Positions 19,854 to 36,512 of a stretch of 64,000 nt of DNA are shown here, in pieces (position 1 is the stretch's first letter; each line of letters opens with the position of its first letter). The stretch comes from an uncultured delta proteobacterium (GTDB lineage: Bacteria > Desulfobacterota > Binatia > Binatales > Binataceae), in the NCBI GenBank assembly GCA_963794325.1, contig CAWCDG010000002.1, positions 384,001 through 448,000 of the forward strand, written 5' to 3'. A model generated the notes under the pieces. It did no database searches. It was not told the origin of the DNA and saw only the letters and a program-made list of their open reading frames with translations. The position numbers were made by a program, and so were the translations under genes.

Positions 19854-21014
19854 ATGCAGCACCTCATTACACGCACCGGCGGTGAAAGCGAGACGCAGGC
19901 GGGCAAACTGATTCCTTCGTTCGTGATCGATACCGCCGGTGCGCCCGCCACCGCGCCGGCCTCCGGAGACTTATCCGCCTCAGCTCCCGAATGGATCGAG
20001 CTGCTCCCGTCGGGCGTCTTCTACGGCCGCGATGGACGCGGGCCGTTTCGCCTCGACGATCCGGCCGCGGTGATCGAATCGACGACCGCATTGCAAATGA
20101 ACGCGGGCATCCCGATTGACTACGATCATGCCACCGACTTCGGTGCGCCCGAAGGACGGCCCGCTCCCGCCGCCGGATGGATTCGCCAATTCGAAGTGCG
20201 TGACGGTGCGGTGTGGGGCCGGGTCGAATGGACCGCGCGCGCATCGAGTTCGATCGTCGCGCGCGAGTACCGCTACGTCTCGCCCGTGTTCCAGTTCGAT
20301 CCGAAAGACGGAAGCGTGACGCGGCTGCTGCGAGCCGGGCTCACCAACAATCCAAATCTTCATTTGACCGCGATTGCGGCGTCGCAAATATCGGCGTCCG
20401 ACAACCAAACGAAGGACCAACAGATGGAATTTCCAACTCAGGAATTGCGCGACCTGCTTAACCTCGAGGGCGATGCGACTGTCGCCGATATCGTCGCAAA
20501 AGTGCGCGAACTGCGCGCGGCCGGCGATGCGGCGTCGTCACAGTCGATTAGCACGCATGCACACGACCCCGCGCACTACGTCGCAATCGCCGAATTCGAG
20601 CGCGCGCTGACTGAGCTGAACGCGCTCAAAGCGGAGCACGCACGCGAACGCGCCGCGCATACGGTGGAAGAAGCGATTCGCGCGGGCAAGCTGGTACCCG
20701 CGCAGCGCGAATGGGCGATCGCGTACTGCGCGGCGGATGCGCGCGGGTTCCAGGCCTTCGCGGCCAAGCAGCCGTCCATCCTCGGCGAAAATCTCGGGCT
20801 GTCGGGAGAGCCGCCTGCCGACCGGCGCGCCGGCGGGCTCAACTCGGCGGAGCTCGCAATCTGCGCGCAGCTCGGCCTCAAGCATTCCGAGTTCATCCGC
20901 CGCAAGCGCGGCCGCGCGGACTTCCTGAGCCTCGAACGCGCCGATGCGGATCTGCGAAACGCGGCAGCCGCGGAACGCGGACCTTACGATAACCGAACAA
21001 CGAGGCGCTCTTAA
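19854..21014 (+). CDS. Mu-like prohead protease I with C-terminal scaffold
   Basis: PEWIELLP.G...GRDGRGP, PIDYDH, APAAGWI, WGRVEWT, EYRYVSPVF, AGLTNNPNL; C-terminal AIRAGKLVPAQREWA and ICAQLGL. Confidence 0.9.
   Translation: MQHLITRTGGESETQAGKLIPSFVIDTAGAPATAPASGDLSASAPEWIELLPSGVFYGRDGRGPFRLDDPAAVIESTTALQMNAGIPIDYDHATDFGAPEGRPAPAAGWIRQFEVRDGAVWGRVEWTARASSSIVAREYRYVSPVFQFDPKDGSVTRLLRAGLTNNPNLHLTAIAASQISASDNQTKDQQMEFPTQELRDLLNLEGDATVADIVAKVRELRAAGDAASSQSISTHAHDPAHYVAIAEFERALTELNALKAEHARERAAHTVEEAIRAGKLVPAQREWAIAYCAADARGFQAFAAKQPSILGENLGLSGEPPADRRAGGLNSAELAICAQLGLKHSEFIRRKRGRADFLSLERADADLRNAAAAERGPYDNRTTRRS
20424..21014 (+). CDS. Putative nested in-frame scaffolding protein (Mu gpZ-like)
   Basis: AAGGA (20412-20416) 7 nt before an in-frame ATG just after the protease domain. 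Confidence 0.55.
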   Translation: MEFPTQELRDLLNLEGDATVADIVAKVRELRAAGDAASSQSISTHAHDPAHYVAIAEFERALTELNALKAEHARERAAHTVEEAIRAGKLVPAQREWAIAYCAADARGFQAFAAKQPSILGENLGLSGEPPADRRAGGLNSAELAICAQLGLKHSEFIRRKRGRADFLSLERADADLRNAAAAERGPYDNRTTRRS

Positions 21015-21048
21015 TACTGAAAAAACTCGCGCTCTTAATACTGAAAAA
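21005..21048 (+). repeat. 20-bp direct repeat GCGCTCTTAATACTGAAAAA x2 (24-nt period)
   Basis: Copies at 21005-21024 and 21029-21048, spanning the protease stop codon. Confidence 0.85.
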
Positions 21049-21057
21049 GGTGAAAAG

Positions 21058-21540
21058 ATGGCGGCTCTAACCAATTCGCGAAATACGCCCGAGATGGCCG
21101 ACGGCGGCAGGATGCGCGTTTACCCGGTCGAGGCGAACACCAACGTTTACCTCGGCGGGATGGTCGCGCTCAACGCGGCCGGCAACGCGGTGCCGGCGTC
21201 GGCGACGACCACCGTCGCAAATGCGCTCAAGGTCGTGGGGCGCGCGGAATACGTGAAAAACGGAATCCCCGGTCAGAATGCGATCAACAATCCCGGCGCC
21301 GCCGCCGCGATTTCGATCGCCGCGCGCAAGGGAGTGTTCCTCTACGCGACCGACGGCTCGGTCGGCGCAGCCCAGGTCGGACTCGTCTGCTTCGCGCTCG
21401 ACGACAACAACGTTACCGCCACCGATCGCGCAAGCGGTGCCAATGTCCAGCAATACGCGGCGGCCGGCATTGTCGTCGCGATCGATCCAAGCGGCCAGGT
21501 CTGGGTGGATTTCTGGCATCAAGCGACCGCATCCGCATGA
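21058..21540 (+). CDS. Mu-like head decoration/cement protein
   Basis: MAALTNSRNTP start, YPVEANT.VYLGGMVAL, RKGVF, ALDDNNV, VWVDF; lies between protease and capsid. Confidence 0.7.
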   Translation: MAALTNSRNTPEMADGGRMRVYPVEANTNVYLGGMVALNAAGNAVPASATTTVANALKVVGRAEYVKNGIPGQNAINNPGAAAAISIAARKGVFLYATDGSVGAAQVGLVCFALDDNNVTATDRASGANVQQYAAAGIVVAIDPSGQVWVDFWHQATASA

Positions 21541-21578
21541 CGATGACGTTCACCGGCTAAAAAGAGAGGAAATACTAA

Positions 21579-22523
21579 ATGGAAATCAGCGCAGCGAATC
21601 TGACCGCATTGTTCACCGGCTTCGACGTCGTCTTCCAGCGCGGGTTCGAAAAGCCGCCGTCATACTACGAGCAGATCACCAGCGTCGTGCGCTCGGCCTC
21701 GCGCCAGACTACCTATCCGTGGCTCGGACGCACTACCAAGTTTCGCGAATGGCTGGGCGACAGGGTAATCCAGGCGCTCGAAACGCACGAGTACACAATA
21801 GTCAATCGGAATTTCGAAGATACAGTGGCTATTGATCGAAACGACATCGAAGACGACACCTACGGCGCCTATGAGCCGATCATCGAGCAGCTCGGATGGG
21901 ACACCAAGGTGCATCCCGACATGCTGCTGTTCGCAATGATCAAGGACGCAGTAGCTAATCCCGGCGACGTCGTCGGCTTCGACGGCGTCCCGTTCTTTTC
22001 GGCGAGCCATCCCGTCGGCCTGATGGGTCAGACCGGAAACACCGCGGCGAATATCAACTCAAGCGGATCGGGTGCCTACTGGTATCTGATCGACGCGTCG
22101 CGAGTGATTCGTCCCTTCATCTTTCAGCTCCGTCGCGAATACGCAGTGACGCGAATGACCAATGTCGCCGACGAGGCGGTCTTCAACCGCCGCGAATTCC
22201 GCTACGGCGTGGACGGCCGCGCCAACACCGGCGTCGGCCTGTGGCAGTTGGCCTACGCCAGCAACACCGATCTCAGCAATCCGACCAACTACGGCGCGGT
22301 GCGCGCCGCGATGCGAGCGTTCAAAACCGATGCGGGACAGCCGTTTGGCGCGCTCTCGAGCCGCGACGGTGTGTACCTGCTGGTCCCCCCGACTCTCGAA
22401 GAAGTCGCGCGGCAACTGTTGAACTCAGAGTTCATGGCCGGTGCCGGCGCGAGCGCGAACGTCGCGACCTCGAACATCTGGCGCAACAGCGCGGACCTTA
22501 TCGTCAGCGAGTTCCTGGCATAA
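21579..22523 (+). CDS. Mu-like major capsid protein (gpT family)
   Basis: YPWLG...FREWLGDR, NRNFEDTVAIDRNDIEDD, HPDML, DGVPFFSASHP, YGVDGR.N.G.GLWQLAY, LLVPP.LE..ARQLL. Confidence 0.93.
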   Translation: MEISAANLTALFTGFDVVFQRGFEKPPSYYEQITSVVRSASRQTTYPWLGRTTKFREWLGDRVIQALETHEYTIVNRNFEDTVAIDRNDIEDDTYGAYEPIIEQLGWDTKVHPDMLLFAMIKDAVANPGDVVGFDGVPFFSASHPVGLMGQTGNTAANINSSGSGAYWYLIDASRVIRPFIFQLRREYAVTRMTNVADEAVFNRREFRYGVDGRANTGVGLWQLAYASNTDLSNPTNYGAVRAAMRAFKTDAGQPFGALSSRDGVYLLVPPTLEEVARQLLNSEFMAGAGASANVATSNIWRNSADLIVSEFLA

Positions 22524-22619
22524 GGACGCGGTGAAAAGTGGAACAGCGATGAATCCAGTTTCCCTGAGCCGGCCAGACGCGGGTCCCCCTCCTGCCCGCA
22601 GCGCCGGAGTGCATGGCAA

Positions 22620-22661
22620 CTCTCCGCGGGCGCGCTTCCATTGTTCAGCGCCCGCGGAGAG
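22620..22661 (+). other. Perfect 14-bp hairpin in the spacer after the capsid gene
   Basis: CTCTCCGCGGGCGC, 14-nt loop, GCGCCCGCGGAGAG; only a short U tract follows. Confidence 0.7.
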
Positions 22662-22706
22662 ACCTTTCAGTCGAATAGTCACTTGCGATGCGACGAGGTT
22701 AGTACA

Positions 22707-23141
22707 GTGAGTTACGCGACCGCCCAGGACATGATCAATCGATACCCTAATCGGGATCTGGTCCAACTGACTAATGAAGATCCAACCGCGACGACCATAA
22801 ACAACGCACCGATCACTCAAGCCCTGGCCGACGCCTCCGCGGAAATCGACGGATACATCGAAGGCCGCTTCACCCTCCCGCTGACGGATCCCCCCGCCGT
22901 CCTCAACCGTCTCACCACCGATATCGCGATGTACCGCATGCAGTCGCTCCGCCCTCTGCACGACCTGGAAGATGCGCGGAAACGATATGAGGACGCGGTC
23001 GCGATGCTCGTGAAGGTAGCGGCCGGCGAGCTCACCCTCGGATTGTCGGCTGACGGCCAGGAACCACCAGTGACAGAAATGCAAGAGAAGGTACAAGGGC
23101 CTGATCGCACATTCAGCCGCAAAAATCTGAGGGGCTACTGA
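22707..23141 (+). CDS. Mu gp36-like head-tail connector (DUF1320)
   Basis: GTG start after GAGG; SYATAQDM..RY, LVQLT, ALADASAEIDGY..RF.LPL, DIA.YR, RYEDAV..L..VA.G.L.LG. Confidence 0.88.
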   Translation: MSYATAQDMINRYPNRDLVQLTNEDPTATTINNAPITQALADASAEIDGYIEGRFTLPLTDPPAVLNRLTTDIAMYRMQSLRPLHDLEDARKRYEDAVAMLVKVAAGELTLGLSADGQEPPVTEMQEKVQGPDRTFSRKNLRGY

Positions 23142-23142
23142 A

Positions 23143-23964
23143 ATGGGCGTGACGCTTGACGCGCCGTGGAACGGGTTGGTCTTCACACCGCCCTCCGCGA
23201 TCGACATCGCGACGATAGAAGACTCGATCGTTACTCAACTGCGTTCACAAATCAGCTCGATCGAAATCACACACTACCCGGATCGTCCCGAAACCTGGCG
23301 CATGACCCATCGCGTGGGAGCGGCGTTGGTGATGTACAAGGGCGCGCACTACGGCGACCTGCTCGACACCGCAGCAACAATCCAGGAACGCAAACTCGAG
23401 TTCGAGATCTCAATCATGATGCGCGATCTAGGATGGGCCGTCGGTGGCGAGGCGGCGGGGCCTAGTCCGGGCGCATACGCAATTATCGAAGCGGTCCGGA
23501 CCGCGCTGACCGGCTTTGAGGTTCCCGGCTGCCGCAAAATGTTCCCGGTGAGTGAGAAATTCGTGAAGCGCGACAAGCAGGGCGGCGTATGGACGTACGC
23601 TTCGACCTTCGCGCTGAGCACGGTTGCAGTCGAAGGCTCGCAGGCCGATGACTTTCCATTCTTCACCAAGGGCATCGCGCTCGAAGAAGGGGGAGAAAGT
23701 ACACTCACCGTCGGCGCGTCGGCATACTCGTTCAACTCGAATCTCCAGGTTCAGCTTCCCCACGGTAATGCGTTTGCAGTCAGCGTCACAGGTCCCGGCA
23801 ACGCGCAGTTGATCGAAGGCGCGGACTTTTCGGTGGATCGCGCGAACGGAATAGTCATTGCGATTCCCGGCGGTGTGATTTCAGCCGGCGAAACGGTGCA
23901 GATTGCGTACTCATACGCCGACGGGGCTATCGCGACCGCAGGCCAGACCGAGCCGACTAACTAA
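23143..23964 (+). CDS. Gp37-like tail terminator with an extra C-terminal beta domain
   Basis: YPDRPE...THRVGAALV.Y.G, AYAIIEAVR.AL.GF..PGC, GVW.Y; position before the sheath gene. Confidence 0.7.
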   Translation: MGVTLDAPWNGLVFTPPSAIDIATIEDSIVTQLRSQISSIEITHYPDRPETWRMTHRVGAALVMYKGAHYGDLLDTAATIQERKLEFEISIMMRDLGWAVGGEAAGPSPGAYAIIEAVRTALTGFEVPGCRKMFPVSEKFVKRDKQGGVWTYASTFALSTVAVEGSQADDFPFFTKGIALEEGGESTLTVGASAYSFNSNLQVQLPHGNAFAVSVTGPGNAQLIEGADFSVDRANGIVIAIPGGVISAGETVQIAYSYADGAIATAGQTEPTN

Positions 23965-24005
23965 TCGGACTAATAGTAACTCATCCGACTGAGTAAAGGT
24001 GATAC

Positions 24006-25547
24006 ATGCCAGCCAGTTTCCTGCATGGAGTTGAAGTAATCGAAGTACCTAATGGGCCGGTGCCGGTCACCGTCGTCAAATCGGCGGTGATCGGATTGGT
24101 CGGGACGGCGCCGACATGGGCGGTGGCGCCGCCAATAGTAGCGGCGGCGCTGAATACGCCGACGCTGGTGTCGTCGGCGCTCAACGCCGCAGAGTTCGGG
24201 CCGACAGTTCGCGGATACACGATTCCGTATGCCTTAGCAGCTATCCAGGCGCAAGGCGCGGGACAGGCGATCGTCGTCAACGTATTCGATCCGACGAGAC
24301 ACTTCACTGCCATAGCTGCGACCGCATTCACGTTCAACGCGCAGAACGCTATCAACCTCGGGCACATGGGAGTGTCGAATGTAGTAGTCACTAGTAATCC
24401 AACTGGTACTATGTACATCGCGGGCACTGACTACACGCTCGACGCGGTGAACGGAGCGGTATCGCTGGTGCCAATCGCCTCGGGAGGACATATTGCCGCC
24501 GGCGCCAGCGTGTTGATTGCGTTCGACTACGCCGATCCGTCGAAGGTGACGGACGCTGATGTGATCGGGGCAATCACCGGCGGCGTGTACACGGGACTTC
24601 AGGTATTCCAGACGACCTACGGCACGTTGGGATTCTTTCCGAAGATCCTGATCGCACCGAGCTATTCGCAAGACCCCACTGTCGCGACCGCTCTCGATGC
24701 GATGGCGACCAAGGTTCGAGCGATGGCGCTGGTCGATTCGCCGCCCGGGACGTCGGCTGCCGCGGCGACAACGAATCGCGGCGTAGTCGGCAACAGCTTC
24801 GCAACTTCGAGCAAGCGAACGATTCTCTGCTACCCGCAAGAGACGTTTTTCGACACTGGAATTGTACCGACCGGAGTGACGCTTAACGCTTCCGGAATCC
24901 CGCTGACATCGCAATTCAACGCGAACGCCGTGGGGCCATATTCGCAGTGGGTGGCTGGAGCGATGGCGGCGAAGGACCTGGCGCAAGGTTACTGGTGGTC
25001 GCCGTCGAACACGCCGGTTGCTGGAATGCTCGGGCCTGATGTTCAGCTCTATGCGTCCATTCTCGACGCGTCGTCGGACGTGAACAGTCTGAACGCCGCG
25101 GGAATCGTGACCGTGTTCAACGCATTCGGCACAGGACTTCGCGTGTGGGGAAACCGGAGCGCGGGGTACCCGACTGCGACCACGCCGGACAATTTTATCT
25201 CGGTACGTCGCACGATGGATGTAATCGAGGAATCCGTGGAGCTGGCGATGCTGCAGTTTATCGATCAGCCGATTTCGAACGCGCTGATCGATGCGATCCT
25301 GGCCAGTGCGAATGCCTTTATCAGATCACTCATCCAGCGTGGAGCATTGGTCGCGGGGGCGGCGAGCTTCAACCCGGCAGAGAATCCATCGGCACAAATT
25401 GCGGGAGGCCAGCTGGTATTCGATATCGACGTAATGCCGCCGCCGCCTGCGGAAAGAATCACGTTCGAAGCATTCATCGATGTAACGTTGCTGCAGCAAC
25501 TAGGGAGCACGAGCCCGATCACTGTAGCTGCGGGGGCGACGGCATAA
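24006..25547 (+). CDS. Contractile tail sheath protein
   Basis: FLHGVEVIEV, SAVIGLVGTAP, PKILIAP, GYWWSPSN, LNAAGIVTV, WGNRS, FISVRRT, PPPAERITF. Confidence 0.95.
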   Translation: MPASFLHGVEVIEVPNGPVPVTVVKSAVIGLVGTAPTWAVAPPIVAAALNTPTLVSSALNAAEFGPTVRGYTIPYALAAIQAQGAGQAIVVNVFDPTRHFTAIAATAFTFNAQNAINLGHMGVSNVVVTSNPTGTMYIAGTDYTLDAVNGAVSLVPIASGGHIAAGASVLIAFDYADPSKVTDADVIGAITGGVYTGLQVFQTTYGTLGFFPKILIAPSYSQDPTVATALDAMATKVRAMALVDSPPGTSAAAATTNRGVVGNSFATSSKRTILCYPQETFFDTGIVPTGVTLNASGIPLTSQFNANAVGPYSQWVAGAMAAKDLAQGYWWSPSNTPVAGMLGPDVQLYASILDASSDVNSLNAAGIVTVFNAFGTGLRVWGNRSAGYPTATTPDNFISVRRTMDVIEESVELAMLQFIDQPISNALIDAILASANAFIRSLIQRGALVAGAASFNPAENPSAQIAGGQLVFDIDVMPPPPAERITFEAFIDVTLLQQLGSTSPITVAAGATA

Positions 25548-25571
25548 CTCGCCCGACACGAGAGGTACACA

Positions 25572-26090
25572 ATGAACATCCAGATCAACTCACTGACTAA
25601 TGCGAATATATACATCGACGGCATTGGACTACTCGGGCGAGCTGAAGAGATCGAGATCGCGAATCCCAAGCACAAGATGATTGACTACAAGGGCTTGGGG
25701 ATGGCCGGCACGGCTGAGTTGTGGGCGGGTGTCGAAAAGCTCGAGTCAAAAATCAAGTGGGCGTCTTTCGACGCGGAGACGCTCACGATGTCGAGCAGCC
25801 CATTTCAAACGCACTCCTTTCAAGCGCGCGGGAATCTCGAGCAGTACACCAGCCAGGGAAGAACCGCGCAGCTTCCGGTGGTGTATCTGATGACCGGGGT
25901 CTTCAAAGATGCGGGGAGTCCCACCTTCCGGCAACATCAGATGGTCGAGACTACTTCAATAGTAAGTATCTACCACTGTGAACTATTCGTCGCCGGCGTC
26001 CAAATATACTTGTACGACGTATTCGCCAATATTTACGTAGTAGGCGGCGTCGATCAACTGAGTACGTTCCGATCGAGTCTTGGCGGGTGA
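25572..26090 (+). CDS. Tail tube protein (P2 FII-like)
   Basis: TNANIYIDG..LLGRAEEI, GLGMAG..EL..GVEKLE, D..ANIY.VGGVDQL; follows the sheath gene. Confidence 0.9.
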   Translation: MNIQINSLTNANIYIDGIGLLGRAEEIEIANPKHKMIDYKGLGMAGTAELWAGVEKLESKIKWASFDAETLTMSSSPFQTHSFQARGNLEQYTSQGRTAQLPVVYLMTGVFKDAGSPTFRQHQMVETTSIVSIYHCELFVAGVQIYLYDVFANIYVVGGVDQLSTFRSSLGG

Positions 26091-26097
26091 GTGACTA

Positions 26098-26463
26098 ATG
26101 AACACCGACGACACAACAGTGAATGGAGTGCGAATAGGTGGCAAGGAAGCCGCTGACGAAGCGGGTGCACGATCGATCGAGCTGCCGTCGGGCGCTCATG
26201 CCGAGGTGCGAAAAGGCTATGGGCGAGACCTGATGCGGGCGCAACGGGCAGCGGTCGGCGGAGACGCGAGCGCAGTGATATTTGCTTTGATCGCCGAGGT
26301 AGCTCGCGTAAATGGATGCAAGATCGTGTACGAGGACGTGCTCGAGATGGATCTGGCGGACGTTATGGCGTTACAGGCGGAGGTGATTGACGAAAATTTC
26401 GACCGCCCTCCGCAGCGAGCTTCGCAGGTCTCATCCAATTCGGATTCTCGGTCCAGGAATTGA
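26098..26463 (+). CDS. Tail assembly chaperone (gpE/G-like)
   Basis: LPSG, GRDL..AQR, ALIA.V, EDVLEMDLAD; follows the tube gene. Confidence 0.8.
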   Translation: MNTDDTTVNGVRIGGKEAADEAGARSIELPSGAHAEVRKGYGRDLMRAQRAAVGGDASAVIFALIAEVARVNGCKIVYEDVLEMDLADVMALQAEVIDENFDRPPQRASQVSSNSDSRSRN

Positions 26464-26561
26464 GCGGGATGGATTTTGCGGAGCTGTCGTACTGGCTGGA
26501 CGCAATGATTGAGTATCAACGGATGTGCGTCGAACGCGGCGGAGGGGCGAGTCGTGACTAG
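26098..26561 (+). CDS. -1 frameshift-extended tail chaperone (gpE+E'-like, about 154 aa)
   Basis: Slippery A AAT TTC at 26394-26400 in the correct phase; -1 frame reads RPPSAASFAGLIQFGFSVQELSGMDFAELSYWLDAM.. to TAG at 26559-26561. Confidence 0.78.
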
Positions 26562-26621
26562 TAATCGCAGTGACTATACCAGAGTGTGCGTAGTGAGTAA
26601 TCCACAAGAGACGGTGAGGCG

Positions 26622-26906
26622 ATGGGAATAAGACTATTCGTTGGCAATCTGAGTTTTTCGTTGGGCGATGGGGATTTGCGTGAGGCCTTTGCCGAGATAG
26701 GCGGTGTAGATCGGGCTGAGATCGTGCGCGATCGGTTCGACGGACGCTCGCGCGGATTCGGCTTTGTCGAAATGAAGACTCAGGACGACGCCGCGGTCGC
26801 GCTGCGGGCAATGAACGGCAAAGAACTGGCAGGGCGTCCTCTGCGAGTGGAAGCAGCGACCTCGCATCGTCGCCCGTTCGACCGCAACGCCGCGCGCCCG
26901 CAGTAG
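26622..26906 (+). CDS. Single-RRM RNA-binding protein
   Basis: RNP2 LFVGNL, RNP1 RGFGFVEM, DRFDGRS, MNGKELAGRPLRVE; GAGG RBS. Confidence 0.95.
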   Translation: MGIRLFVGNLSFSLGDGDLREAFAEIGGVDRAEIVRDRFDGRSRGFGFVEMKTQDDAAVALRAMNGKELAGRPLRVEAATSHRRPFDRNAARPQ

Positions 26907-26939
26907 AAACACCGAAAGACGGGGCATCGCAGCGAGCAC

Positions 26940-28370: not shown

Positions 28371-28609
28371 TGCTTTCGGGACGTTTAATACTTCACGTCA
28401 CGACGGCGGGTGAACGGTGGGACCTGCTAGCCTGGCGATACTACGGTGATCCGACTGACTATTCGCCGATTATAATGGCTAATCCGAATGTAGCTATTGA
28501 ACCGGTATTCGATGCCGGCATCTCAATAGCGATACCGCTTCAGCAGAAGAGCGCGATGGCGACGGCCAACCTGCCGCCCTGGAAAGTATCACAAGCGGTG
28601 AGCGGGTAA
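28367..28609 (+). CDS. Tail protein X (P2 gpX, LysM-like)
   Basis: HVT..GERWDLLAWRYYGDP, II.ANP, LPPWK. Confidence 0.9.
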   Translation: MMLSGRLILHVTTAGERWDLLAWRYYGDPTDYSPIIMANPNVAIEPVFDAGISIAIPLQQKSAMATANLPPWKVSQAVSG

Positions 28610-29625
28610 TGGCTGCGGGGGCATTTAATATAGTTCGATCGCCGCAGTGGATACTCACTTATTCGGATGTGAACATTACGGCAGATGTATCGGAGATGGT
28701 TCTTGCAATCAGGTATATCGATCGGCTCGACGGCACCTCGAGCGATCTGGAGATTGAACTCGAAGACTCAGGGAAGCTGTGGCAGGGGCCGTGGTATCCG
28801 GTGATCGGCGACATAGTCAGTCTGCAAATTGGCTATAGCAATGAGCTATTGCTGGACTGCGGAACATTCCAGATTGACGAGTTGGAATCGGATGGGCCGC
28901 CCGACGTTATGAGACTGCGATGCCTTGCCGCGTACATCACGACCGCGATGCGGACCGCAAATACTGTGGCCTACGAAAACATGGGCATCGTAGAAATCGT
29001 GGCGCAAATCGCGGCGAAGTATGGATTGACGGTGGTGATGGCGTCGTCCGAATCGGAAAACGACATAACGTTTGCGCGCGTGACGCAGCGGCGTCAGATG
29101 GATTTGGAATTTCTGAAGCGCCTGGGGAGAGAGCACAATTTTGATTTCACGGTGCGTGCCGGTCAACTGATCTTTTACGAGCGAGCGGCGCTCGAATCTA
29201 TTCCGGCCGCGACGTTGATTACGCGATCTGACACTTTGCGGTTCGCATTTCGGAACCGGGCGCGCCGAATCTACGACGCCGCGGACTTCTCGTACTTCGA
29301 TCCTGATACGAAAGAGCTGATTACTCAGTCGGTACCGTCGGACGGATCTTCGCCGACGGGCGATACCCTGAAAATCGTTGCGCGCTGTGAAAATGCAGAG
29401 CAGGCGCAGGTCAAAGCAGCAGCCGGACTTCATTTGCACAACATGGTGTTGGTGGACGCGTCGATTGAAGGACCCGGGAACACGGTGCTGGTGGCCGGGA
29501 ACAACGTGCAGCTCAGTGGATGGGGCGCGCTCGATGGGAAGTATTTGATCGAGACCGCAAAGCATCACATGGCGCGCGCGACGGGATACACAACATCAAT
29601 TGCAGCGCGACGGATTAACCCATGA
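28609..29625 (+). CDS. Baseplate hub / P2 gpD-like protein
   Basis: Y.DRLDG.S.DLEIELED, W.P..GD...LQIGY, CGTF.IDE.E..GPPD, DLEFLKRL, G...LVAG..V.L.G.G.LDG.Y.I. Confidence 0.88.
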   Translation: MAAGAFNIVRSPQWILTYSDVNITADVSEMVLAIRYIDRLDGTSSDLEIELEDSGKLWQGPWYPVIGDIVSLQIGYSNELLLDCGTFQIDELESDGPPDVMRLRCLAAYITTAMRTANTVAYENMGIVEIVAQIAAKYGLTVVMASSESENDITFARVTQRRQMDLEFLKRLGREHNFDFTVRAGQLIFYERAALESIPAATLITRSDTLRFAFRNRARRIYDAADFSYFDPDTKELITQSVPSDGSSPTGDTLKIVARCENAEQAQVKAAAGLHLHNMVLVDASIEGPGNTVLVAGNNVQLSGWGALDGKYLIETAKHHMARATGYTTSIAARRINP

Positions 29626-30314
29626 ACGACATAATTGAATACCGCGAGCGATTTGCTGCGCTGAACCCCACGTTCCGGGTCGGGATTGTGCAGGCGCAGG
29701 ACCCCGCGCATGCGAAGGTGCGGGTGGTGTTTCCGGATTACGACGAAATGATCAGCTGGTGGCTGCCGGTTGTTTTTGCAAAGACCCAGAACGACAAGGT
29801 GTACTGGATTCCGGATATCGGCGAGCAGGTCGTTTGCCTGATGGACCTGCGCGACGAGGCCGGCGCGGTGCTGGGTGCGATCTATTCGAGCGCCGACACG
29901 CCGCCAGTAAACAGCGCTGACAAGTTTCATCTCGCGTTCAGGGACGGCGCGCACTTCGACTACGATCGCGTCGCGCATCTGCTCGATCTCCTTTTCCAGG
30001 ACACGACGGAACTCAAATACGACGCTCGGGTGCATCTGCTCGATCTGAAATTTCAGGATCAGGCGGAGCTGCAGTATGACGGTACCGAGCATGTTCTGAG
30101 CATGAATCTGCCGCAGGGTGCGGCGTTCAATCTCTCGGCGAACGGTGCGCAGATTCAGATCGACTCGAACGGCAACGTCGTCATCAAGAGTGGAGGGCTG
30201 GTTCAGATCGGGAACGGCCCGCTGGCAGGTGTCGCTCGGCTGGGCGATCGAGTGCAAGTCGGCGAGGCGACCGGAACGATCGTGAGCGCGAGCACCGACG
30301 TGCTGGCGGGATGA
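29622..30314 (+). CDS. Baseplate spike (gpV family)
   Basis: RVGIV, VRV.FPD, WLPV, PDIGEQVVCL.D..G.VLGAIYS..D.PP; internal 19-aa repeats. Confidence 0.88.
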   Translation: MNDIIEYRERFAALNPTFRVGIVQAQDPAHAKVRVVFPDYDEMISWWLPVVFAKTQNDKVYWIPDIGEQVVCLMDLRDEAGAVLGAIYSSADTPPVNSADKFHLAFRDGAHFDYDRVAHLLDLLFQDTTELKYDARVHLLDLKFQDQAELQYDGTEHVLSMNLPQGAAFNLSANGAQIQIDSNGNVVIKSGGLVQIGNGPLAGVARLGDRVQVGEATGTIVSASTDVLAG

Positions 30315-30733
30315 CGATGCCGGCAGGCGCAATTACACTTGCAGATATCAGATCGGCTGATTGGTCGTTGGCTCTAGGAGCCATCGGCGAAGTAGTGCAG
30401 GGGATCGCCGACGTCGAACAGTGTTTGGGAATTATTGTGACGACGCCGCGCGGGAGCGACCCTTTGCGGCCGACCTTCGGCGCGAATATCTGGCGGTACA
30501 TCGACTTTCCGATCAGTCTTGCGCTACCCGCAATCGTCAGCGAACTGACCTCGGCGATCACAATTTGGGAGCCGCGCGTGAATCTTGTTTCGGTGACGGC
30601 GCAAAGCGTCAACGATGCGACTGCGCAATCGGGCGCGCAGCTCGACGTCACGCTCAGCTGGCGGCTCAAGCTGGGCGTCACCGGGGCTCCCGTTCAGATC
30701 ACGACCGTGACAATCCCGGGAGCGGCGGTCTAG
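30311..30733 (+). CDS. Baseplate wedge gpW/gp25 family
   Basis: DVEQCL.II.TTP.GSDP.RP.FG, YID.P, AI..WEPRV. Confidence 0.9.
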   Translation: MTMPAGAITLADIRSADWSLALGAIGEVVQGIADVEQCLGIIVTTPRGSDPLRPTFGANIWRYIDFPISLALPAIVSELTSAITIWEPRVNLVSVTAQSVNDATAQSGAQLDVTLSWRLKLGVTGAPVQITTVTIPGAAV

Positions 30734-30765
30734 CCGGGGCCGCGCCGACGCGATGAAAGGATGAG

Positions 30766-31938
30766 TTGATGGGTGCAGGAATTCCGTCGCTGCCGCCGCC
30801 GGTGTTCGTCAACGACGCGGACGGTCTCGATCCAAACCTGATCCTCGCGGACATGATCGCCGAGTTCGAGGCGGCGTCGGGCCGGACGCTTCAACCGGCC
30901 CAGGTGGAGCGCCTGCTCATTAATTTGTATGCGTACCGCGAATCGCTGGTGCGCAACGCGATTCAGTATGCGGCCGAGCAGAATCTGCTCGCGTTCGCAT
31001 CGTTCCCGATGCTCGATTATCTAGGTCAACTGTTGAGCGTCAATCGATTGGCCTCGCAGCCCGCGGTGACGACGATTCAATTCACCTTGACCGGCGCGCT
31101 GACGGTGCCGTTTACGATTGCTGCGGGAACCCTGGTCGGCACGAGCGATGGGCAGTTTGCATTCGCAACCAGCGCGACGATCACACTCGCGGCCGGTGCA
31201 ACCATCGCAAGTGTCGCTGCCGCCGCGACGGCTCCAGGAGCGGGTGCGAATGGATACCTGGCGGGACAAGTCAGCGTCCAGCTCAATCCGAACAGTTTGA
31301 TCGCGAGCGTGACGAACACCAGCACGACCACCGGTGGCTCTGCTCCCGAGACGGACGATCATCTGCGCACGCGCATCCAGGCTGCGCCGAATCAATTCAG
31401 CGTCGCGGGACCGAGCGGGGCGTACCGGTTCTTTGCGATCGGCGCGGACCCGTCGATCGTCGATGCGCAAATTGTCAGTCCCTCTCCCGGATCGGTGAAT
31501 GTGTATGTGCTGACGGGACCGGTGACGCAACAGCCTGCGCCGGCGCCGAACAGCGCGGGAGTCGCGAACTCCGCGTTGCTTGCAAAAGTCGCGACGGTGC
31601 TGAATGCCGACACGATGCGTCCGTTGACCGACACCGTGAACGTGCTTGCAGTGACCGAGGTGGACTACCAGATCACCGCGACGGTGACGCTGTATTCGGA
31701 TGCCGATCCCACTGCGACGATCGTCGCGGCAACGGCGGCCGTCACCGAACTGGCGCTCGAGCTGGCGGCCAAGATTCAGCGCGACATCGTGCCGAGCCAG
31801 ATAATTGCGGCGCTATCGGTGGCGGGCGTCTATGGCGTGACGCTCACGTCGCCGACTCTGACGACGCTCACCTATGGGCAGTGGGCGAACTGCACGACGA
31901 TCGCGCTGACGACAGCGTTCAGCACGGAGCATAGCTGA
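30766..31938 (+). CDS. Baseplate J/gp47 family
   Basis: GRTL.PAQVERLLI...AYRE, QNLLAFA, ETDDHLR.RI, FSVAGP.GAY.F.A, RPLTD.V.V. Confidence 0.92.
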   Translation: MMGAGIPSLPPPVFVNDADGLDPNLILADMIAEFEAASGRTLQPAQVERLLINLYAYRESLVRNAIQYAAEQNLLAFASFPMLDYLGQLLSVNRLASQPAVTTIQFTLTGALTVPFTIAAGTLVGTSDGQFAFATSATITLAAGATIASVAAAATAPGAGANGYLAGQVSVQLNPNSLIASVTNTSTTTGGSAPETDDHLRTRIQAAPNQFSVAGPSGAYRFFAIGADPSIVDAQIVSPSPGSVNVYVLTGPVTQQPAPAPNSAGVANSALLAKVATVLNADTMRPLTDTVNVLAVTEVDYQITATVTLYSDADPTATIVAATAAVTELALELAAKIQRDIVPSQIIAALSVAGVYGVTLTSPTLTTLTYGQWANCTTIALTTAFSTEHS

Positions 31939-32801
31939 TGCCCGAGCTGTCGGCCGCTCCTTCGATTAACGATACGCGCACGCAGGCGCTGCTGGAGTTG
32001 ATCTCGCGGCTCGCCGCACTCGATCTCACGACGCTGCTGGTTTACCGAATCGACTCGGTGGTGGACGGCGCACTGCCATTTTTGGCGTGGCAGTTCGACG
32101 TCCTTTCTCCGCTGTGGCAGTTGATTGCGCCGGTGGCGATTGGGGTCGATGCGCTGACGAACATCGATTTGCTGATCGACGTCGACAACCTGATCGAATC
32201 CGGCGGCCTGGTTACGGAGCTGACGCTGACCGAGGCGGCGCAGCGCGAACTGCTCAAGAACGCAATCGGGCTGCATCGATTTCGCGGTACGCCGTGGGCA
32301 ATCAAGCAGGCGCTAGCATCGTTGGGATGGGAGCAGGTCGTTTTGCTCGAGGGTCAGACCAGCTGGGGCGGCGTCTCGTATCCGTCGAATCAGGGCTGGG
32401 CGGTCTTTCGCGTCATCATTGATCTCGCCGTGGGACAGGGCGTCTCAATCGGCGCGTCGGCGACGGCGGCTGCGGCGGCGAATTTTTTTAAGCCGGCGCG
32501 CGCGTGGCTCGATTCGGTATGGTTTGCAGTGCCGGGGATTTCCGACGTGGGGCCGAAGCCGTCGGACAAGCTGACGCTCGGCGGAATCGTGAAGTACCAA
32601 CTCGACGCCGCGCCCGCGCCCAATGACAATGCGCTGGCTTTTGCGATTGCGACGGCATCGCTCACCGACCCGCACGGTCCGATTGTCCCCGCTTACGACG
32701 GCCACTATCGGCATAGCGGGATCACTCACGGCGCCAATGAACCCGAAGTCGCGGACTCGGCGCTTATCCTTAACGGCGCGGCCGTTTTGCACGGAGGTTG
32801 A
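31938..32801 (+). CDS. Tail protein I (P2 gpI family)
   Basis: LPFLAWQFDV, RELLKNAI.LHR.RGTPWAIK.AL, WA.FRV, KPAR. Confidence 0.85.
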   Translation: MPELSAAPSINDTRTQALLELISRLAALDLTTLLVYRIDSVVDGALPFLAWQFDVLSPLWQLIAPVAIGVDALTNIDLLIDVDNLIESGGLVTELTLTEAAQRELLKNAIGLHRFRGTPWAIKQALASLGWEQVVLLEGQTSWGGVSYPSNQGWAVFRVIIDLAVGQGVSIGASATAAAAANFFKPARAWLDSVWFAVPGISDVGPKPSDKLTLGGIVKYQLDAAPAPNDNALAFAIATASLTDPHGPIVPAYDGHYRHSGITHGANEPEVADSALILNGAAVLHGG

Positions 32802-32802
32802 A

Positions 32803-33267
32803 ATGAGAAGGCCGATAGGAATCGTGCGGATACGAGTTGTCGAGCGCGGCCGCGTCGTCTGGCAACACGAGGGAACCAATCTTTTCGTGAACGCCGGGCG
32901 GCCGGCGCTCGCGGCGCTGCTCGGTGGCGACACCGCGGGTGAATTTGCTGCGGCGGTGGGATTTGGTTCCGGCTCGGCAGCGCCGACGGTCACCGACACC
33001 GCGCTGACCGCGGCTGTGTATTACAAAGCGCTCGATGGTCACAGCGAGGACGGCAACGGCAGCTTGACGCTCAACTGGTCGCTGACGACGGCGGACACCG
33101 GCGCGCAGGGAATAACGATCCAGGAGTTGGCGATATTCGCGAATCATGGCAGCGCGATACTGCCGGGAACCGCCGCGCCGACCCCGATGCTCGCGCGCAA
33201 GACTATTGCACCAATAGTGTTTGGCGCGGGAATGAGTATTAGCGGTACGTGGACGCTTACTTTCTGA
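32803..33267 (+). CDS. Baseplate/tail-collar-associated protein
   Basis: ATG 32803 after GGAGG; NLFVNAG, GFGSG..AP...DTAL, I.EL.IF, ARK, GTW.LTF. Confidence 0.6.
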   Translation: MRRPIGIVRIRVVERGRVVWQHEGTNLFVNAGRPALAALLGGDTAGEFAAAVGFGSGSAAPTVTDTALTAAVYYKALDGHSEDGNGSLTLNWSLTTADTGAQGITIQELAIFANHGSAILPGTAAPTPMLARKTIAPIVFGAGMSISGTWTLTF

Positions 33268-33275
33268 GGTAGTCA

Positions 33276-33836
33276 ATGGCTACACTAATCGACGCAGCCG
33301 AGTTCACCTCAAATGAGGTTTACCAGATACAAGCGACCGATCCGGTCGAAGGCGCCGCCACTGGAGCGAGTTTCAGCGGTACTGGAATTTCGAATCAACC
33401 GCATCAGCAACTGGCTAATCGCACCGCGTTCTTGAAGCAGCGCCAGGACGTCAATATCTCGAATATCGGCCTGTTGCAGGCCTTCATGGCGAACTTCGCC
33501 GGCGCGATGGGCGCCAACGGCTACCTGGCTATTCCGCTAGCCGACGTGAATCGCGGATCGATCGTCGCGATCGTCCAGTGGGGCGCGATGTTTCCGGGCG
33601 GCGGGCTCGACAACGACACAAGCTACACGGTGACCTGGCCGACTGCCTTTCCCAACGCATGCGTGTGGTCGAGCGCGACCTTGTCGAACTCTCGGGCGCT
33701 AAGGAATGCCGGCCAGTTGATAGTCGACATAGTCAGTTTCACGACGACCACGGGAACCTTCAGATCGGATCTTATCGGCGGCGTCGCAAGCCAGCTCCCC
33801 AACGATGGCTTCTACTGGATGGCGATTGGATTTTAG
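33276..33836 (+). CDS. Short tail-fibre-like protein
   Basis: VYQI..TDPV.G, N...QQLANRT.FLK anchor; C-terminal NGY...VQWG, VTWP.AFPNAC, YW.AIG. Only 186 aa. Confidence 0.75.
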   Translation: MATLIDAAEFTSNEVYQIQATDPVEGAATGASFSGTGISNQPHQQLANRTAFLKQRQDVNISNIGLLQAFMANFAGAMGANGYLAIPLADVNRGSIVAIVQWGAMFPGGGLDNDTSYTVTWPTAFPNACVWSSATLSNSRALRNAGQLIVDIVSFTTTTGTFRSDLIGGVASQLPNDGFYWMAIGF

Positions 33837-33857
33837 GAAATCGACGGGAGCCGGCGG

Positions 33858-36512
33858 ATGGAGATGAATGTGAGACAAAAGATTTCGCCGGCGATTTGGC
33901 GCGCGATGTTCGCCACGTTGATCCTGCTGGTAGTTAGTGACGGGGCAAATGCGCAGAATCTGCCGCCGCCCGGAGCTTATCAGCCGATTCCCAACTTCAC
34001 CGGGGTAGGTGCGGGATTGCAGTTCCGCGAAGCGATCAACCAGCGCTTCGCCGGCAACCAGCCGATCGCGCCTTCAATCGTCACCCCTACCTTCGTCAAC
34101 CTGCCGCCCGAGCAGGACGGGATGCTCCTCTTCTGCAAGGACTGCAAGAGCGCGACGCCGTGCGTAAGTGGCGGAGCGGGTGCTTTTGCTCTCGGCACTC
34201 GCGGACAGTGGGCGTGCGCGGGCGCGGCTCTGGAAGCCACTCTCAACGCAAACGGCAATAAGGTCTCGAACCTTGCGAGCGGCACCGTCAATGGAGACGC
34301 GGTCGCGTTTGGCCAGACTGGAGCGCAGCTCAACACGATTTCAGGCTCGAAGCTCGACGGCAGCGACGCTATCTCGAACGTCAGCGTCAACGGCGTCAAG
34401 AACGTGAGAGCATTCGGCGCGACTGGTTCGCTGGCGACCGCGTCGGCTACGACCATCGCCGGCAACGCAACGGTCACCGTCAATTCAATCGGGGATTTCA
34501 AAATCGGGAATTGGGTGAAGCTCGATCATGCGGGCGCCGCCTCGAACGCGAATGCTCCGACCGGCGTGACCGTGGTCCCGAACAGTTACGGGATGAATCC
34601 CAATCCGACCTCGGATATCACTAAAACTGTGGCGAACGGCGGCGGCTGTCAGGTCGATACCGCCACCACTAACAGCGCGCACAACACTGCGTGCAACGTT
34701 TCGTATACCTATCAGATTGTCGGAGTGAGCCAGGGCGGCGGATGGTCGGCGCCGACGGGCGCGGTATCGACCAGCGCGGGGCCGGCGACGCTGAGCACAA
34801 ACAATAACCTCCTGTTGAGTTGGACCGGCGCTGCCAACGACATCGCGTATCTGATCTATTCGTGCAGTGGCGCTTCATGCACGCCGAGCCTGCACGCGGT
34901 AGTGCCTCACGCCGGACCGCTGGGCGCCACGGCGGAATCCTATCGCGACTTCGGGCATGCGTTCGGCACCGATGAAGATTTCGGTACGGCGATCCGCTCG
35001 AGCAGCGCGGCGCAGGATCTGTTCGCGCAGATTACGGGCGTAAGCGGGACCAACGTGACTCTGTCGGTAGCGCCGGCGCAGACTGGATCGTCCACGATGC
35101 GCCACGATGACAGCGTGCCGATCAACGCGGCGATCAGTTCGATCTGCTCGCATAGCGCGACGACCGGCACAGTCGGCGGCATCGTCGAGTTCCCCGCGAC
35201 CTCGACTTACCCACTCGCCCAGTCGCTCAACCTCTACGGATGCTGGGGCGTCACGCTCTCAGTGACCGGCGCTCAGAACGGCGACGGCGGACGTCCGGTC
35301 GAACTCGAGTGGCACGGCGTCACCGGCGGCACCGTCATCAATATGAACAAGGCGGCCGACTCCCGAGTGGCGGGGCTGTCAGTCTCGGGAATCAATGGGA
35401 ATACGGCGGGCGTGATCCTCGACGTGGACAATTACCCGACCGGCGGAAGCGGTGACAATCTGGCGACGCAGAACGATACGTTCGAGCGGCTGGAACTCGG
35501 CCGGGCGGGCATCGGCATTCGCGTCGCGAATCGATCGGGCGCCAACGTCCAGGACCTGAGCTTTCGCGACGTGCAGATCTCGAATCCGTCGAACGGGCAG
35601 GGCGGCATGTGGGGCTACTTCTTCGGCGGCCTCGGCCAGACGTACAACGAAGAGATCCGCGGCGGCCTGATCGCCGGCCATGACGTCGCGATCGTCTCGG
35701 CATTCGTCGGACAACTCGAAATTTACGGCACCGACTTCGAGCAGAACAAAATCGAGGCATGGACTATCGATCGCTTCGGCGGCGGTGCCGACGGCAACAT
35801 GATGTTTTCCGGCGTGACCAGCGAGAGCGCTCAATATTTCATCTACGACAATTCGGGCAGCAACCCCTCGAACTTCATCGTCGATGCGAGCCGAATCGCG
35901 GACGCCCCGGGACCGAACGGATACGTGATGCAGTTGAGCCGGCCAATCGCAATCAAAAGTTCATGGGTTTGCAGCGGCGGGACTACGGTTTGCGGAATCA
36001 GCAACGGCAACGCGCCGAGTCCAAACCCGATTTTTTCGATGCAGAGCAATTACGGCGACGCGATCCCGTTTCGCAACGGCGACGGCAGCAACTCGCCCGA
36101 CACGGTGCTCTTCACTGAGTTTACCGATTTGGTTGCAGCCGGCGCCGTTCGAATCGGCTACTTGAGCCATACACCGAACATCGAAGCATGCTCGAACGCC
36201 GGCGCGGTCTCGACCAGCACCACGCTCGTGTTCTCGACCAATTCGTGCCAGAAAATTTCCACCGCGACGACCGGACTCACCTATACGCTATCGACGACCG
36301 GGCTGGTCGCCGATCAAGTTGTGACCATCGAGTCCTACATCACCGGCGCAATTTCCGCGGGCCCTGTATTCGCGACCTCAAGCGGCGCAATCAAATGGAC
36401 CGGCGGTTCGGCGCCGACCTCGAGCATCGCCGGCGGCTACGTGGACGTGTTGAGACTGAAGTGGGACGGCGCCAACTGGCTCGAGCTCAGCCGCAGCATC
36501 GGCGACCATTGA
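33858..36512 (+). CDS. Tailspike/pectate-lyase-3-like beta-helix protein with N-terminal signal peptide
   Basis: RQK..AIWRAMFATLILLVVSDGANA|Q signal; NVRAFGATG and DDSVPINAAI..GGIVEFP..STY motifs; G/N/T-rich beta repeats. Confidence 0.65.
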   Translation: MEMNVRQKISPAIWRAMFATLILLVVSDGANAQNLPPPGAYQPIPNFTGVGAGLQFREAINQRFAGNQPIAPSIVTPTFVNLPPEQDGMLLFCKDCKSATPCVSGGAGAFALGTRGQWACAGAALEATLNANGNKVSNLASGTVNGDAVAFGQTGAQLNTISGSKLDGSDAISNVSVNGVKNVRAFGATGSLATASATTIAGNATVTVNSIGDFKIGNWVKLDHAGAASNANAPTGVTVVPNSYGMNPNPTSDITKTVANGGGCQVDTATTNSAHNTACNVSYTYQIVGVSQGGGWSAPTGAVSTSAGPATLSTNNNLLLSWTGAANDIAYLIYSCSGASCTPSLHAVVPHAGPLGATAESYRDFGHAFGTDEDFGTAIRSSSAAQDLFAQITGVSGTNVTLSVAPAQTGSSTMRHDDSVPINAAISSICSHSATTGTVGGIVEFPATSTYPLAQSLNLYGCWGVTLSVTGAQNGDGGRPVELEWHGVTGGTVINMNKAADSRVAGLSVSGINGNTAGVILDVDNYPTGGSGDNLATQNDTFERLELGRAGIGIRVANRSGANVQDLSFRDVQISNPSNGQGGMWGYFFGGLGQTYNEEIRGGLIAGHDVAIVSAFVGQLEIYGTDFEQNKIEAWTIDRFGGGADGNMMFSGVTSESAQYFIYDNSGSNPSNFIVDASRIADAPGPNGYVMQLSRPIAIKSSWVCSGGTTVCGISNGNAPSPNPIFSMQSNYGDAIPFRNGDGSNSPDTVLFTEFTDLVAAGAVRIGYLSHTPNIEACSNAGAVSTSTTLVFSTNSCQKISTATTGLTYTLSTTGLVADQVVTIESYITGAISAGPVFATSSGAIKWTGGSAPTSSIAGGYVDVLRLKWDGANWLELSRSIGDH

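Follow-up and report, generated by a model that had tools for sequence, protein, structure and literature searches.

What does a run of phage head and contractile-tail genes represent when it stands between an ABC transporter ATPase gene and murF in a bacterial chromosome, with no genes for insertion beside it? The question is raised by a stretch of 64,000 nucleotides (the window) from a soil bacterium of the genus Candidatus Binatus (Binataceae; assembly GCA_963794325.1, contig CAWCDG010000002.1, positions 384,001 to 448,000), in which ORF (open reading frame) listing and family scans agree on 21 head, contractile-tail, baseplate and fibre genes in one unbroken plus-strand series (19854-36512). 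A sequence-only reading of the window had described the same 16.7-kb co-directional operon and proposed that it is a domesticated, selected gene set and not a movable prophage, a proposal borne out by its location, its phylogeny, its substitution rates and its integrity in relatives. The element to which the operon belongs is an immobile, vertically inherited, selectively maintained phage gene set. Its sequence suggests, with a probability of roughly 0.7, that the operon is the late head-tail operon of a BcepMu-like transposable myovirus, now a vertically inherited and selected chromosomal gene set of the kind represented by PBSX-like elements and gene transfer agents (GTAs).

Two halves of one phage gene set

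Neither a portal nor a terminase gene is found in the window, and no transposase, integrase, repressor or lysis gene stands beside the cluster there; the window has no tRNA gene, and no shift in G+C content marks the operon borders. The source genome (G000), a metagenome bin of 10 contigs that is 85% complete, has exactly one Mu-type portal gene, on contig C3, and exactly one gene for the major capsid protein gpT, in the window; its sheath, tube, baseplate J and large terminase (TerL) genes are likewise single-copy. The portal gene closes a packaging and regulatory locus (C3:91684-100227, from the repressor end to the portal) that comprises, in order, a divergently transcribed LexA-like repressor (helix-turn-helix and Peptidase_S24 domains), a small zinc-finger ORF, a Mor-family activator, a holin-like ORF, a lipoprotein, a membrane/coiled-coil protein, a phrog_436 protein, gp27, TerL and the portal, after which cellular genes follow on the minus strand. 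The repressor gene abuts a host carboxyltransferase gene and is separated from the Mor gene by the small ORF only; its product matches Peptidase_S24 (E 8e-21) and visibly contains GDSM and VKR residues and an A-G pair, which we take to be the catalytic and cleavage motifs of LexA. The sequence-only reading, which had noted an absence of transposase, integrase, repressor and lysis genes and spoken of a clean loss of selfish functions, was thus right about the surroundings of the cluster in the window and about the transposition and replication arm, which is gone, but the repressor, lysis and packaging genes are kept on C3, and in relatives all of these adjoin the operon. It had also held that the remainder of a prophage found elsewhere would speak against domestication; the remainder is indeed on C3, but it lacks a transposase, and it too is conserved and in synteny.

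Pairwise Nei-Gojobori comparison of ten Binatus genomes gives ratios of nonsynonymous to synonymous substitution rates (dN/dS) of 0.039 for the tail tube, 0.051 for gpT, 0.068 for an RNA-recognition-motif (RRM) protein encoded within the tail module, 0.097 for the sheath and 0.103 for both TerL and the portal; other structural genes lie at 0.11-0.20 and the short tail fibre at 0.33. The prevailing range of 0.04-0.2 is not near 1, the value that the sequence-only reading had named as a sign against host selection. The median synonymous divergence (dS) of the element genes (0.5-1.0) is similar to that of the flanking host genes (0.47-0.66), so that the element is as old as its neighbours in these lineages.

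The rival explanation that survives best, although we consider it improbable, is that the set is kept for some other use: immunity conferred by the repressor, the RRM gene or other passenger genes, or the tails alone as a bacteriocin. The RRM gene is conserved like the structural genes, the fibre and receptor-binding genes diversify as those of tailocins do, the tape measure has been shrinking and is lost in three genera, and the minor head and neck genes F and G are lost from all elements, all of which would suit such a use. Nevertheless, the terminase, gp27, portal, protease and capsid genes are as strongly constrained as the tail genes, and within the genus the portal is found in 41 of 46 genomes and gpT in all 24 other sampled species; a tail-only or regulator-only role would not keep them, and head genes are absent from R-type tailocins.

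The distance between the halves is 8-20 kb in most related species, where they belong to a single locus; G013, G018, G009, G016, G014, G006, G012, G003 and others have both on the same contig and strand. The left flank in eight one-contig Binatus species consists of host monooxygenase, hydrolase and carboxyltransferase genes, followed by the repressor, the zinc-finger ORF, Mor, a GH108 endolysin, membrane and lipoprotein genes, phrog_436, gp27, TerL and the portal; a methyltransferase gene and 5-17 kb of variable cellular genes, often including a DUF7948 protein and the ABC ATPase, separate the portal from gene I, the first gene of the head-tail operon, which is itself followed by murF. In genera g33 and g31 (G078, G102, G100) the portal is directly followed by I and the whole element, compact and again without transposase, F or G, spans about 22 kb, with the repressor at one end and the fibre at the other; the interruption in Binatus is therefore derived. 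In G007, a genome in one contig, the halves are on opposite strands with 1.25 Mb between them, and in the source genome, where they occupy two contigs, synteny with relatives stops about 2.5 kb past the portal and at the DUF7948 gene before I. The sequences adjacent to gene I differ between these two genomes, which suggests separate splitting events. It is very unlikely that the two loci are an artefact of binning or assembly and that the real element is contiguous: the source genome is an 85%-complete bin in 10 contigs, with consensus indels at 37821 and probably 27206, but each half lies deep within a long contig (680 kb for C2, 457 kb for C3), bordered left and right by host genes of equal G+C content, G007 has them equally separated on its single contig, and the loss of synteny with relatives has a defined position on either side.

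Distribution, integrity and descent

The relatives compared are soil and peat metagenome bins of Candidatus Binatus and Binataceae (117 close relatives, of which the best 80 are 75-99% identical); species-level tallies take one genome per species, and a few unpublished genomes are counted in the distribution tallies. Across the family, 106 of the 150 other genomes sampled carry gpT, representing 22 of 30 genera; it is nearly always a single copy, and its identity is graded by genus (g1, 92-98%; g37, 85-88%; g43, 80-83%; g31 and g33, 75-79%). A sample of the class has gpT in 22 of 25 Binataceae and in 1 of 175 genomes of 19 other families (36% identical). The operon is followed by murF (66-85% identical) in all 16 Binatus genomes compared, which agrees with the single locus expected by the sequence-only reading. 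Divergent versions with long branches and capsids 57-63% identical are present in G066 and G072 (L154, L155), of two genera; chaperone and tape measure genes were not detected in either, about 3.4 kb separate the portal from I in G066, and these versions may represent a separate lineage.

When queries are trimmed to probable starts, whole genes occupy 270 of 288 gene-by-genome cells for the tail half and 68 of 70 for the packaging half, so the accumulation of stops that would have pointed to decay is not observed in relatives. A single G018 deletion, running from tube to J, accounts for nine of the 18 misses in the tail half. In the same bins, splits in essential host genes are about as frequent (gyrB, 4 of 39; secA, 3 of 27); isolated frameshifts are therefore no sign of decay, and many of the breaks are assembly errors. 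An ordinary defective prophage in slow decay, recently inactivated and without selected function, would be in keeping with the separated halves and missing endolysin of the source genome, the 5-kb internal deletion in G018, the split genes of some bins and the absence of the element from 44 of 150 family genomes, but unselected genes would not remain open over interspecies dS of 0.5-1.0 with dN/dS of 0.04-0.2, nearly all cells are whole, and the element is conserved over 22 of 30 genera with a translational frameshift signal in 28 of 29 elements; we regard slow decay as extremely improbable.

The history of the element follows that of its hosts. Quick trees were built from ten concatenated element proteins of 30 genomes and, as host markers, from GyrB plus GyrA and from SecA (rpoB was not found in the source genome). 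Each multi-member genus forms one clade in all three trees, and the group g1+g37+g40+g32 is recovered in each. Element and SecA distances correlate at 0.961 overall and 0.934 within the genus; the Mantel correlation between element and GyrBA is 0.886, a value reached by none of 9999 permutations. The element tree thus follows SecA and the genus labels, as the proposal of domestication required.

No transposase, integrase or replication gene was found in or beside the element in any genome examined. The DDE_2 transposase family has no match in G000, G007, G078 or G089; model PF02914 does not detect the transposase of control phage RS138, which belongs to a different type, and the negative rests on the model's detection of a gene in G100, on PF09299 and on the lack of room in the locus. 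Mu F (PF04233) is missing from G000, G007, G078, G100 and G089, and the model detects F in RS138. MuA-type transposase genes (743- and 723-codon frames) are located far from the element at G100:C5:69203-70009 and G066:C1:370921-371103; they may belong to true Mu-like prophages. An active temperate phage of many Binataceae, with one preferred site and an unrecognised integration mechanism, is as improbable as decay, for although the gene set includes a complete repressor-Mor switch with lysis, packaging, head and tail genes, 112 fragments are classed as viral in IMG/VR and MuA-type transposases occur elsewhere in G100 and G066, the element has no gene for transposition, integration or replication, is interrupted between portal and I by host genes of differing content, is spread over 1.25 Mb or two contigs in G007 and G000, has the dS of flanking host genes and tracks SecA to species level.

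Several observations weigh against the reading of the element as a selected gene set that makes particles. The GH108 and PG_binding_3 endolysin gene that follows Mor in all nine other Binatus genomes, and that is found in other genera also, has been removed from the source genome by a deletion of about 500 bp (C3:93339-93557; L003:11340-11558), no GH108 endolysin copy was found elsewhere in the 85%-complete assembly, and particle release may consequently be impaired. G018 (L020, L121) has lost about 5 kb, from the chaperone through gpW, and retains the operon on either side of the gap. In g37, g40 and g32 no tape measure gene is present in situ, and the gpU gene directly follows the RRM gene (G082, G133, G085, G101; loci L140-L143). 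F, the "DNA pilot" minor head protein, and the neck protein G are missing from all elements examined; the loss of either might prevent completion of heads or their joining to tails, and their universal loss is unexplained. Of 150 family genomes, 44 gave no gpT match, among them every sampled member of g25 (0/5) and g36 (0/6), which indicates that the element is dispensable. Within the genus the GyrBA tree is discordant (r 0.485 with the element and 0.389 with SecA); the agreement of SecA with the element and not with GyrBA identifies the gyrase genes as the outlier, and limited exchange of the element between species may also have taken place. Purifying selection by itself fits host benefit and selfish persistence alike, all genomes compared are metagenome bins with assembly indels, and the system is known from its genes, with expression, particles and packaged DNA as predictions from them. 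As a separate observation, the difference of the intra-genus gyrase tree (L134, L135, L250-L262) from those of SecA and the element hints at recombination of the gyrase region between species.

Genes and signals of the head-tail operon

Upstream of gene I lies a conserved non-coding block (19785-19853, plus strand), a candidate activator-dependent, Mor-type late promoter with the dyad GTTCAGGGATGAAC and TGTTCAG at 19794-19814. The block of 70 nucleotides, with its dyad GTTCAG-N3-TGAAC located 40-60 nucleotides before the start of I, aligns in 16 of 16 Binatus genomes irrespective of the sequence upstream, recurs with 1-2 mismatches in three of three g37 and g40 genomes, and was not found in 13 genomes of other genera. 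In phage Mu, gene I starts its own C-activated late transcript, which would explain why a break exactly at I is tolerated. The dyad has no second copy in the whole source genome, so that co-regulation of both loci through one motif is unsupported; and a consensus scan of 18700-38000 found no excess over shuffled sequences of promoters (4 versus 4.9) or terminators (12 versus 16.2). In the compact elements of G078 (L236:4892-5299) and G100 (L238:7955-8350), a small protein with a DnaA C-terminal helix-turn-helix domain is encoded between repressor and Mor, where Binatus has the zinc-finger ORF.

All operon genes are on the plus strand, and many have touching or overlapping stops and starts (28367/28370, 28609/28609, 29622/29625 and 30311/30314 among them), as the sequence-only reading had observed. 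The head genes begin with a Mu I-type protease/scaffold (19854-21014; PF10123, Mu-like_Pro, E 9.8e-71; dN/dS 0.156), followed by a head protein in the position of Mu Z (21058-21540; phrog_1731, residues 39-190), for which the ORF is listed from 20944 but the probable start is 21058, there being stops upstream of residue 40 in relatives. The gene for gpT (21579-22523; PF10124, Mu-like_gpT, E 1.6e-92) is followed by those for a gp36-type head-tail connector (22641-23141; PF07030, Phage_Mu_Gp36, E 2.5e-35), for which the mechanical ORF list gives too long a start, and a Gp37-type head completion or tail terminator-like protein (23143-23964; PF09646, E 2.7e-31). The tail genes begin with the contractile sheath (24006-25547; PF04984 and PF17482) and the tube (25572-26090; PF04985, Phage_tube, E 1.3e-37).

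The tail assembly chaperone gene (26098-26561; phrog_21320, weak PF10109) consists of a frame at 26098-26463 and a -1 extension: the slippery heptamer A_AAT_TTC lies at 26394-26400 and the -1 frame is open to 26561. The retained recoding signal reported by the sequence-only reading is therefore genuine, and the heptamer with an extension of 53-62 codons is kept in 28 of 29 elements with a chaperone match, from more than ten genera. The next gene (26622-26906; PF00076, RRM_1, E 1.2e-21) encodes the RRM protein of 94 amino acids, which scores 85.5 bits against NF058537, under the cut-off of 100. It occupies the same position in g1, g37, g40, g32, g19, g29, g31 and one of two g33 genomes, and has four host paralogues in the genome (39-49% identity). 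The presence of an RRM gene between chaperone and tape measure has no explanation in the reading preferred here.

The short tape measure gene is present in the assembly as two overlapping frames (26940-27774, comprising 26940-27230 and 27142-27774). Contigs from four soil DNA runs of one study were compared with the assembly for indels; base 27206 is missing from the short-read contig of one public run (X1, depth 10.7), and by frame arithmetic its removal yields one gene of 277 codons. DNA alignment of the tape measure region is too divergent for placement of the indel. In relatives the gene is a single ORF, encoding 266-365 amino acids in Binatus, of which the C-terminal 70 are conserved, and 363-487 in five other genera; the "mini tape measure" of the sequence-only reading is thus accurate as to length in relatives, if not as to the state of the gene in this assembly. 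Of the genera that lack a tape measure in situ, g37 yielded weak matches at other places in a profile search; g40 and g32 yielded none. The genomes G082, G133, G085 and G101 all retain the chaperone, with the -1 signal in G082, G133 and G101; the signal was not found in G085 (g40). The stepwise shortening and loss of the tape measure while chaperone and frameshift persist is unexplained.

The remaining tail and baseplate genes encode a P2 gpU-type tail protein (27780-28370; PF06995, E 7.5e-26), tail protein X (28367-28609; PF05489, Tail_X, E 1e-12), a gpD-type baseplate hub (28609-29625; phrog_52, E 3.3e-79, weak PF05954), a gpV-type spike (29622-30314; PF04717, Phage_base_V, E 7e-6), a gpW/gp25-type wedge (30311-30733; PF04965, GPW_gp25, E 3e-12), baseplate J (30766-31938; PF04865, E 2.5e-48), a P2 gpI-type baseplate or tail protein (31938-32801; PF09684, Tail_P2_I, E 6.8e-17) and a conserved phage protein without assigned role (32803-33267; phrog_5417, residues 71-214), for which the ORF is listed from 32623 but the probable start is 32803, since stops in relatives precede residue 51. 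The spike had been described as exported; a crude hydropathy scan detected no hydrophobic N-terminal segment in gpV, and so gave the description no confirmation. The short tail fibre (33276-33836; PF21882, Gp53-like; phrog_4209) is the most divergent gene, at 55-92% identity.

The last gene (33858-36512), an accessory one found in some Binatus genomes only, encodes a protein of 884 amino acids for which Pfam and PHROG scans gave no match. Its homologues share only the first 15-25%, the remainder being pectate-lyase-like or LamG domains, and its nearest Atlas clusters are viral tailspike types at scores of 0.81-0.88, all below 0.9 and to be taken as leads only. This modular pattern and the Atlas leads fit a receptor-binding tailspike, and the protein is probably tailspike-like. 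A paralogue of 892 amino acids, with pectate-lyase-like and LamG domains, is encoded on the minus strand at C4:45837-48515 (L280:5838-8516), adjoining Wza- and Wzc-type polysaccharide export genes; its N-terminal 200 residues are common with the 884-residue protein (46% identity), and it could represent either a cellular enzyme or a third locus of the system.

On the left the operon is flanked by the host ABC transporter ATPase gene (18890-19783, minus strand; PF00005), which precedes I in seven of ten Binatus genomes compared. The sequence-only reading identified this neighbour correctly and placed it 157 bp away; the gap is 70 bp counted from the longest ORF start, and 157 bp would need a later start. 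On the right, as that reading stated, 6 bp separate the last gene from the end of host murF (36519-37898, minus strand; TIGR01143, 297 bits against a cut-off of 288.6). An ORF of 814 codons over murF (36519-38963) is over-long and an assembly artefact: the base at 37821 is absent in four of four runs. The other genes of the window are cellular, among them those for acyl-CoA dehydrogenases, a histidine kinase, RecD2, ArgS, anthranilate synthase and LptD. Two large proteins of secreted type are also encoded, one of 1189 amino acids with DUF7948, beta-propeller and Ig-like domains just upstream of the ABC gene (15201-18770) and one of 1176 amino acids with a CEMIP beta-helix (28-3558). A dispersed repeat with 682 blastn matches in the genome, and up to 230 copies per position, occurs at 18847-18889 of the window and in intergenic parts of the packaging locus (L003:11968-13317, 14506-14856 and 16439-16657). 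The C3 ORFs p96, p116, p134 and part of p155 were rejected as genes, being translations of this repeat with PFPRGKG-type motifs; p189 was also rejected, as it appears antisense to a minus-strand gene.

Proposed working and comparison with known systems

Kept as it is in most of the family, the gene set probably continues to make phage-like particles that serve the cell. From the gene content we infer how the system may be induced, activated in trans and assembled, and what its particles might do. The transposition and replication arm, together with F and G, would have been lost near the base of the Binataceae, with vertical inheritance under purifying selection since then. DNA damage would cause the repressor to cleave itself, its loss would permit transcription of the packaging and regulatory locus, and Mor would then activate the head-tail operon in trans at the conserved dyad upstream of I. 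Procapsids would assemble on the portal and be filled with DNA by the terminase, the heads would be joined to short contractile tails, the tape measure of about 280 amino acids being one third of that of BcepMu, and lysis of the cell would release the particles. Having no means of replication or integration, such particles could not propagate the element like a phage and would be limited to carrying cellular DNA, killing neighbours or both; that terminase, portal and capsid genes are constrained points to DNA-filled heads and away from a bare tailocin.

A bolder proposal, which we consider doubtful, is that the element is a sixth independent kind of GTA, the first known of transposable (Mu/BcepMu-like) phage ancestry and, outside the Firmicutes, the first whose tail is contractile. 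The two blocks could then sit anywhere in the chromosome by virtue of Mor driving the head-tail block in trans from a private promoter, the embedded RRM protein would have become part of the control or assembly of the machine, and the tape measure would have been shortened stepwise, from about 480 to 400 to 280 amino acids to none in situ, giving an unusually short tail. If that holds, a widespread soil phylum without cultured members would have in this particle a major route for exchanging genes or for kin-directed killing. To our knowledge, independent domestications of a whole tailed phage are few (RcGTA-type, BaGTA, VSH-1, Dd1, VTA and PBSX-like). The present element would add one from a different phage lineage, in the metagenome-only phylum Binatota, kept in most of one family, and serves as a natural experiment that separates dispensable phage parts (transposase, F, G and most of the tape measure) from indispensable ones; it also illustrates a phage regulatory circuit that permits a gene set to be split within the chromosome. 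For annotation, the 112 IMG/VR fragments of these loci are filed as viral contigs although they are chromosomal bacterial genes. In the portions of the literature available, no work linking Binatota with gene transfer agents was found, and Binatota were linked with prophages only in work on another subject; among the papers found that treat Mu-like elements, gene transfer agents and domestication together, none describes a Mu-derived agent, to judge by titles and abstract openings.

No cultured phage is close, the best capsid match being 42%. The closest cultured relatives are BcepMu and phiE255 (TerL 57%, sheath 43% and capsid about 40% identical), and the element is collinear with BcepMu through the lysis genes, gp27, TerL, portal, I/Z, T, gp36, gp37, sheath, tube, frameshifted chaperone, tape measure, U, X, D, V, W, J, I and fibre. 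It differs in having none of BcepMu genes 1-16 (transposase, transposition ATPase, GemA and others), F (gp30) or G (gp31), in the length of its tape measure (about 280 versus 846 amino acids), in its extra RRM gene and in its fixation at one chromosomal site. A Mu- or BcepMu-like phage has a DDE transposase and a transposition ATPase next to the repressor, and F and G between portal and I; the element has neither pair, I directly following the portal in G078, G102 and G100.

The contractile sheath and tube, P2-type baseplate and diversifying fibres recall R-type tailocins (R-pyocins) and extracellular contractile injection systems. Pyocins are controlled by the S24-type repressor PrtR paired with the activator PrtN, and the element likewise pairs an S24-type repressor with an activator. 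Those systems consist of tail genes and have no capsid, portal or terminase, whereas the element has all three, and the protease, conserved and constrained.

RcGTA is siphovirus-like, with an HK97-type head and a non-contractile tail, and is under cellular regulators, whereas the element retains a phage-type repressor and activator and a contractile tail, and its packaging and transfer of DNA are putative. The two are alike in comprising a phage structural set without replication or integration genes, in being common throughout a host clade, passed on vertically and held by purifying selection, and in consisting of several cooperating loci; the available part of the RcGTA study counts 24 genes in five loci and names, in section titles, host-recognition genes and polysaccharide lyase assays (PMC5026251). 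Compared with the general definition of a GTA (PMC8987985, in the part available), the element has a phage structural set from which genes for replication, integration and transposition are absent, and purifying selection and vertical descent mark it throughout a host clade. GTA particles also package more or less random cellular DNA, in pieces too short for the whole gene set, and deliver it to recipient cells for recombination; for the element both activities are putative. An ancient prophage found order-wide in Sphingomonadales is, according to the part of the account available, similarly an orthologous remnant kept across families at host-like evolutionary rates; its retention is ascribed to passenger genes, and by its abstract it is not Mu-like (PMC5381585).

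The PBSX-like elements of Bacillus, as described in the accessible part of PMC8347963, are chromosomal non-replicating phage remnants, syntenic across related species, with a DNA-filled head, a contractile tail, lysis genes and a backward-transcribed repressor gene at the left end. The element has the same combination of head, contractile tail, packaging, lysis, divergent repressor and conserved site, save for the endolysin missing from the source genome; its late genes likewise include terminase, portal, capsid, sheath, tube, baseplate J and lysis functions, and the tape measure is a variable region in both (PMC8347963, in the part available). Induction of the SOS type, documented for PBSX in that part of the source, would be expected here from the S24 repressor. 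PBSX-like particles kill related strains and do not propagate, an activity that is putative for the element. The element differs from PBSX in its descent from a BcepMu-like lineage, in a host of another phylum with a Gram-negative-type envelope (LptD is encoded in the window), in its control by Mor, in being interrupted or in two loci, in the RRM gene within the tail module and in a tape measure of only about 280 amino acids. The sequence-only reading had found the combination of parts to match no known system, a view that does not hold beside PBSX-like elements and the multi-locus RcGTA, as far as the available parts of PMC8347963 and PMC5026251 describe them; by analogy, the element most resembles PBSX-like particles and gene transfer agents, and it is not without precedent.

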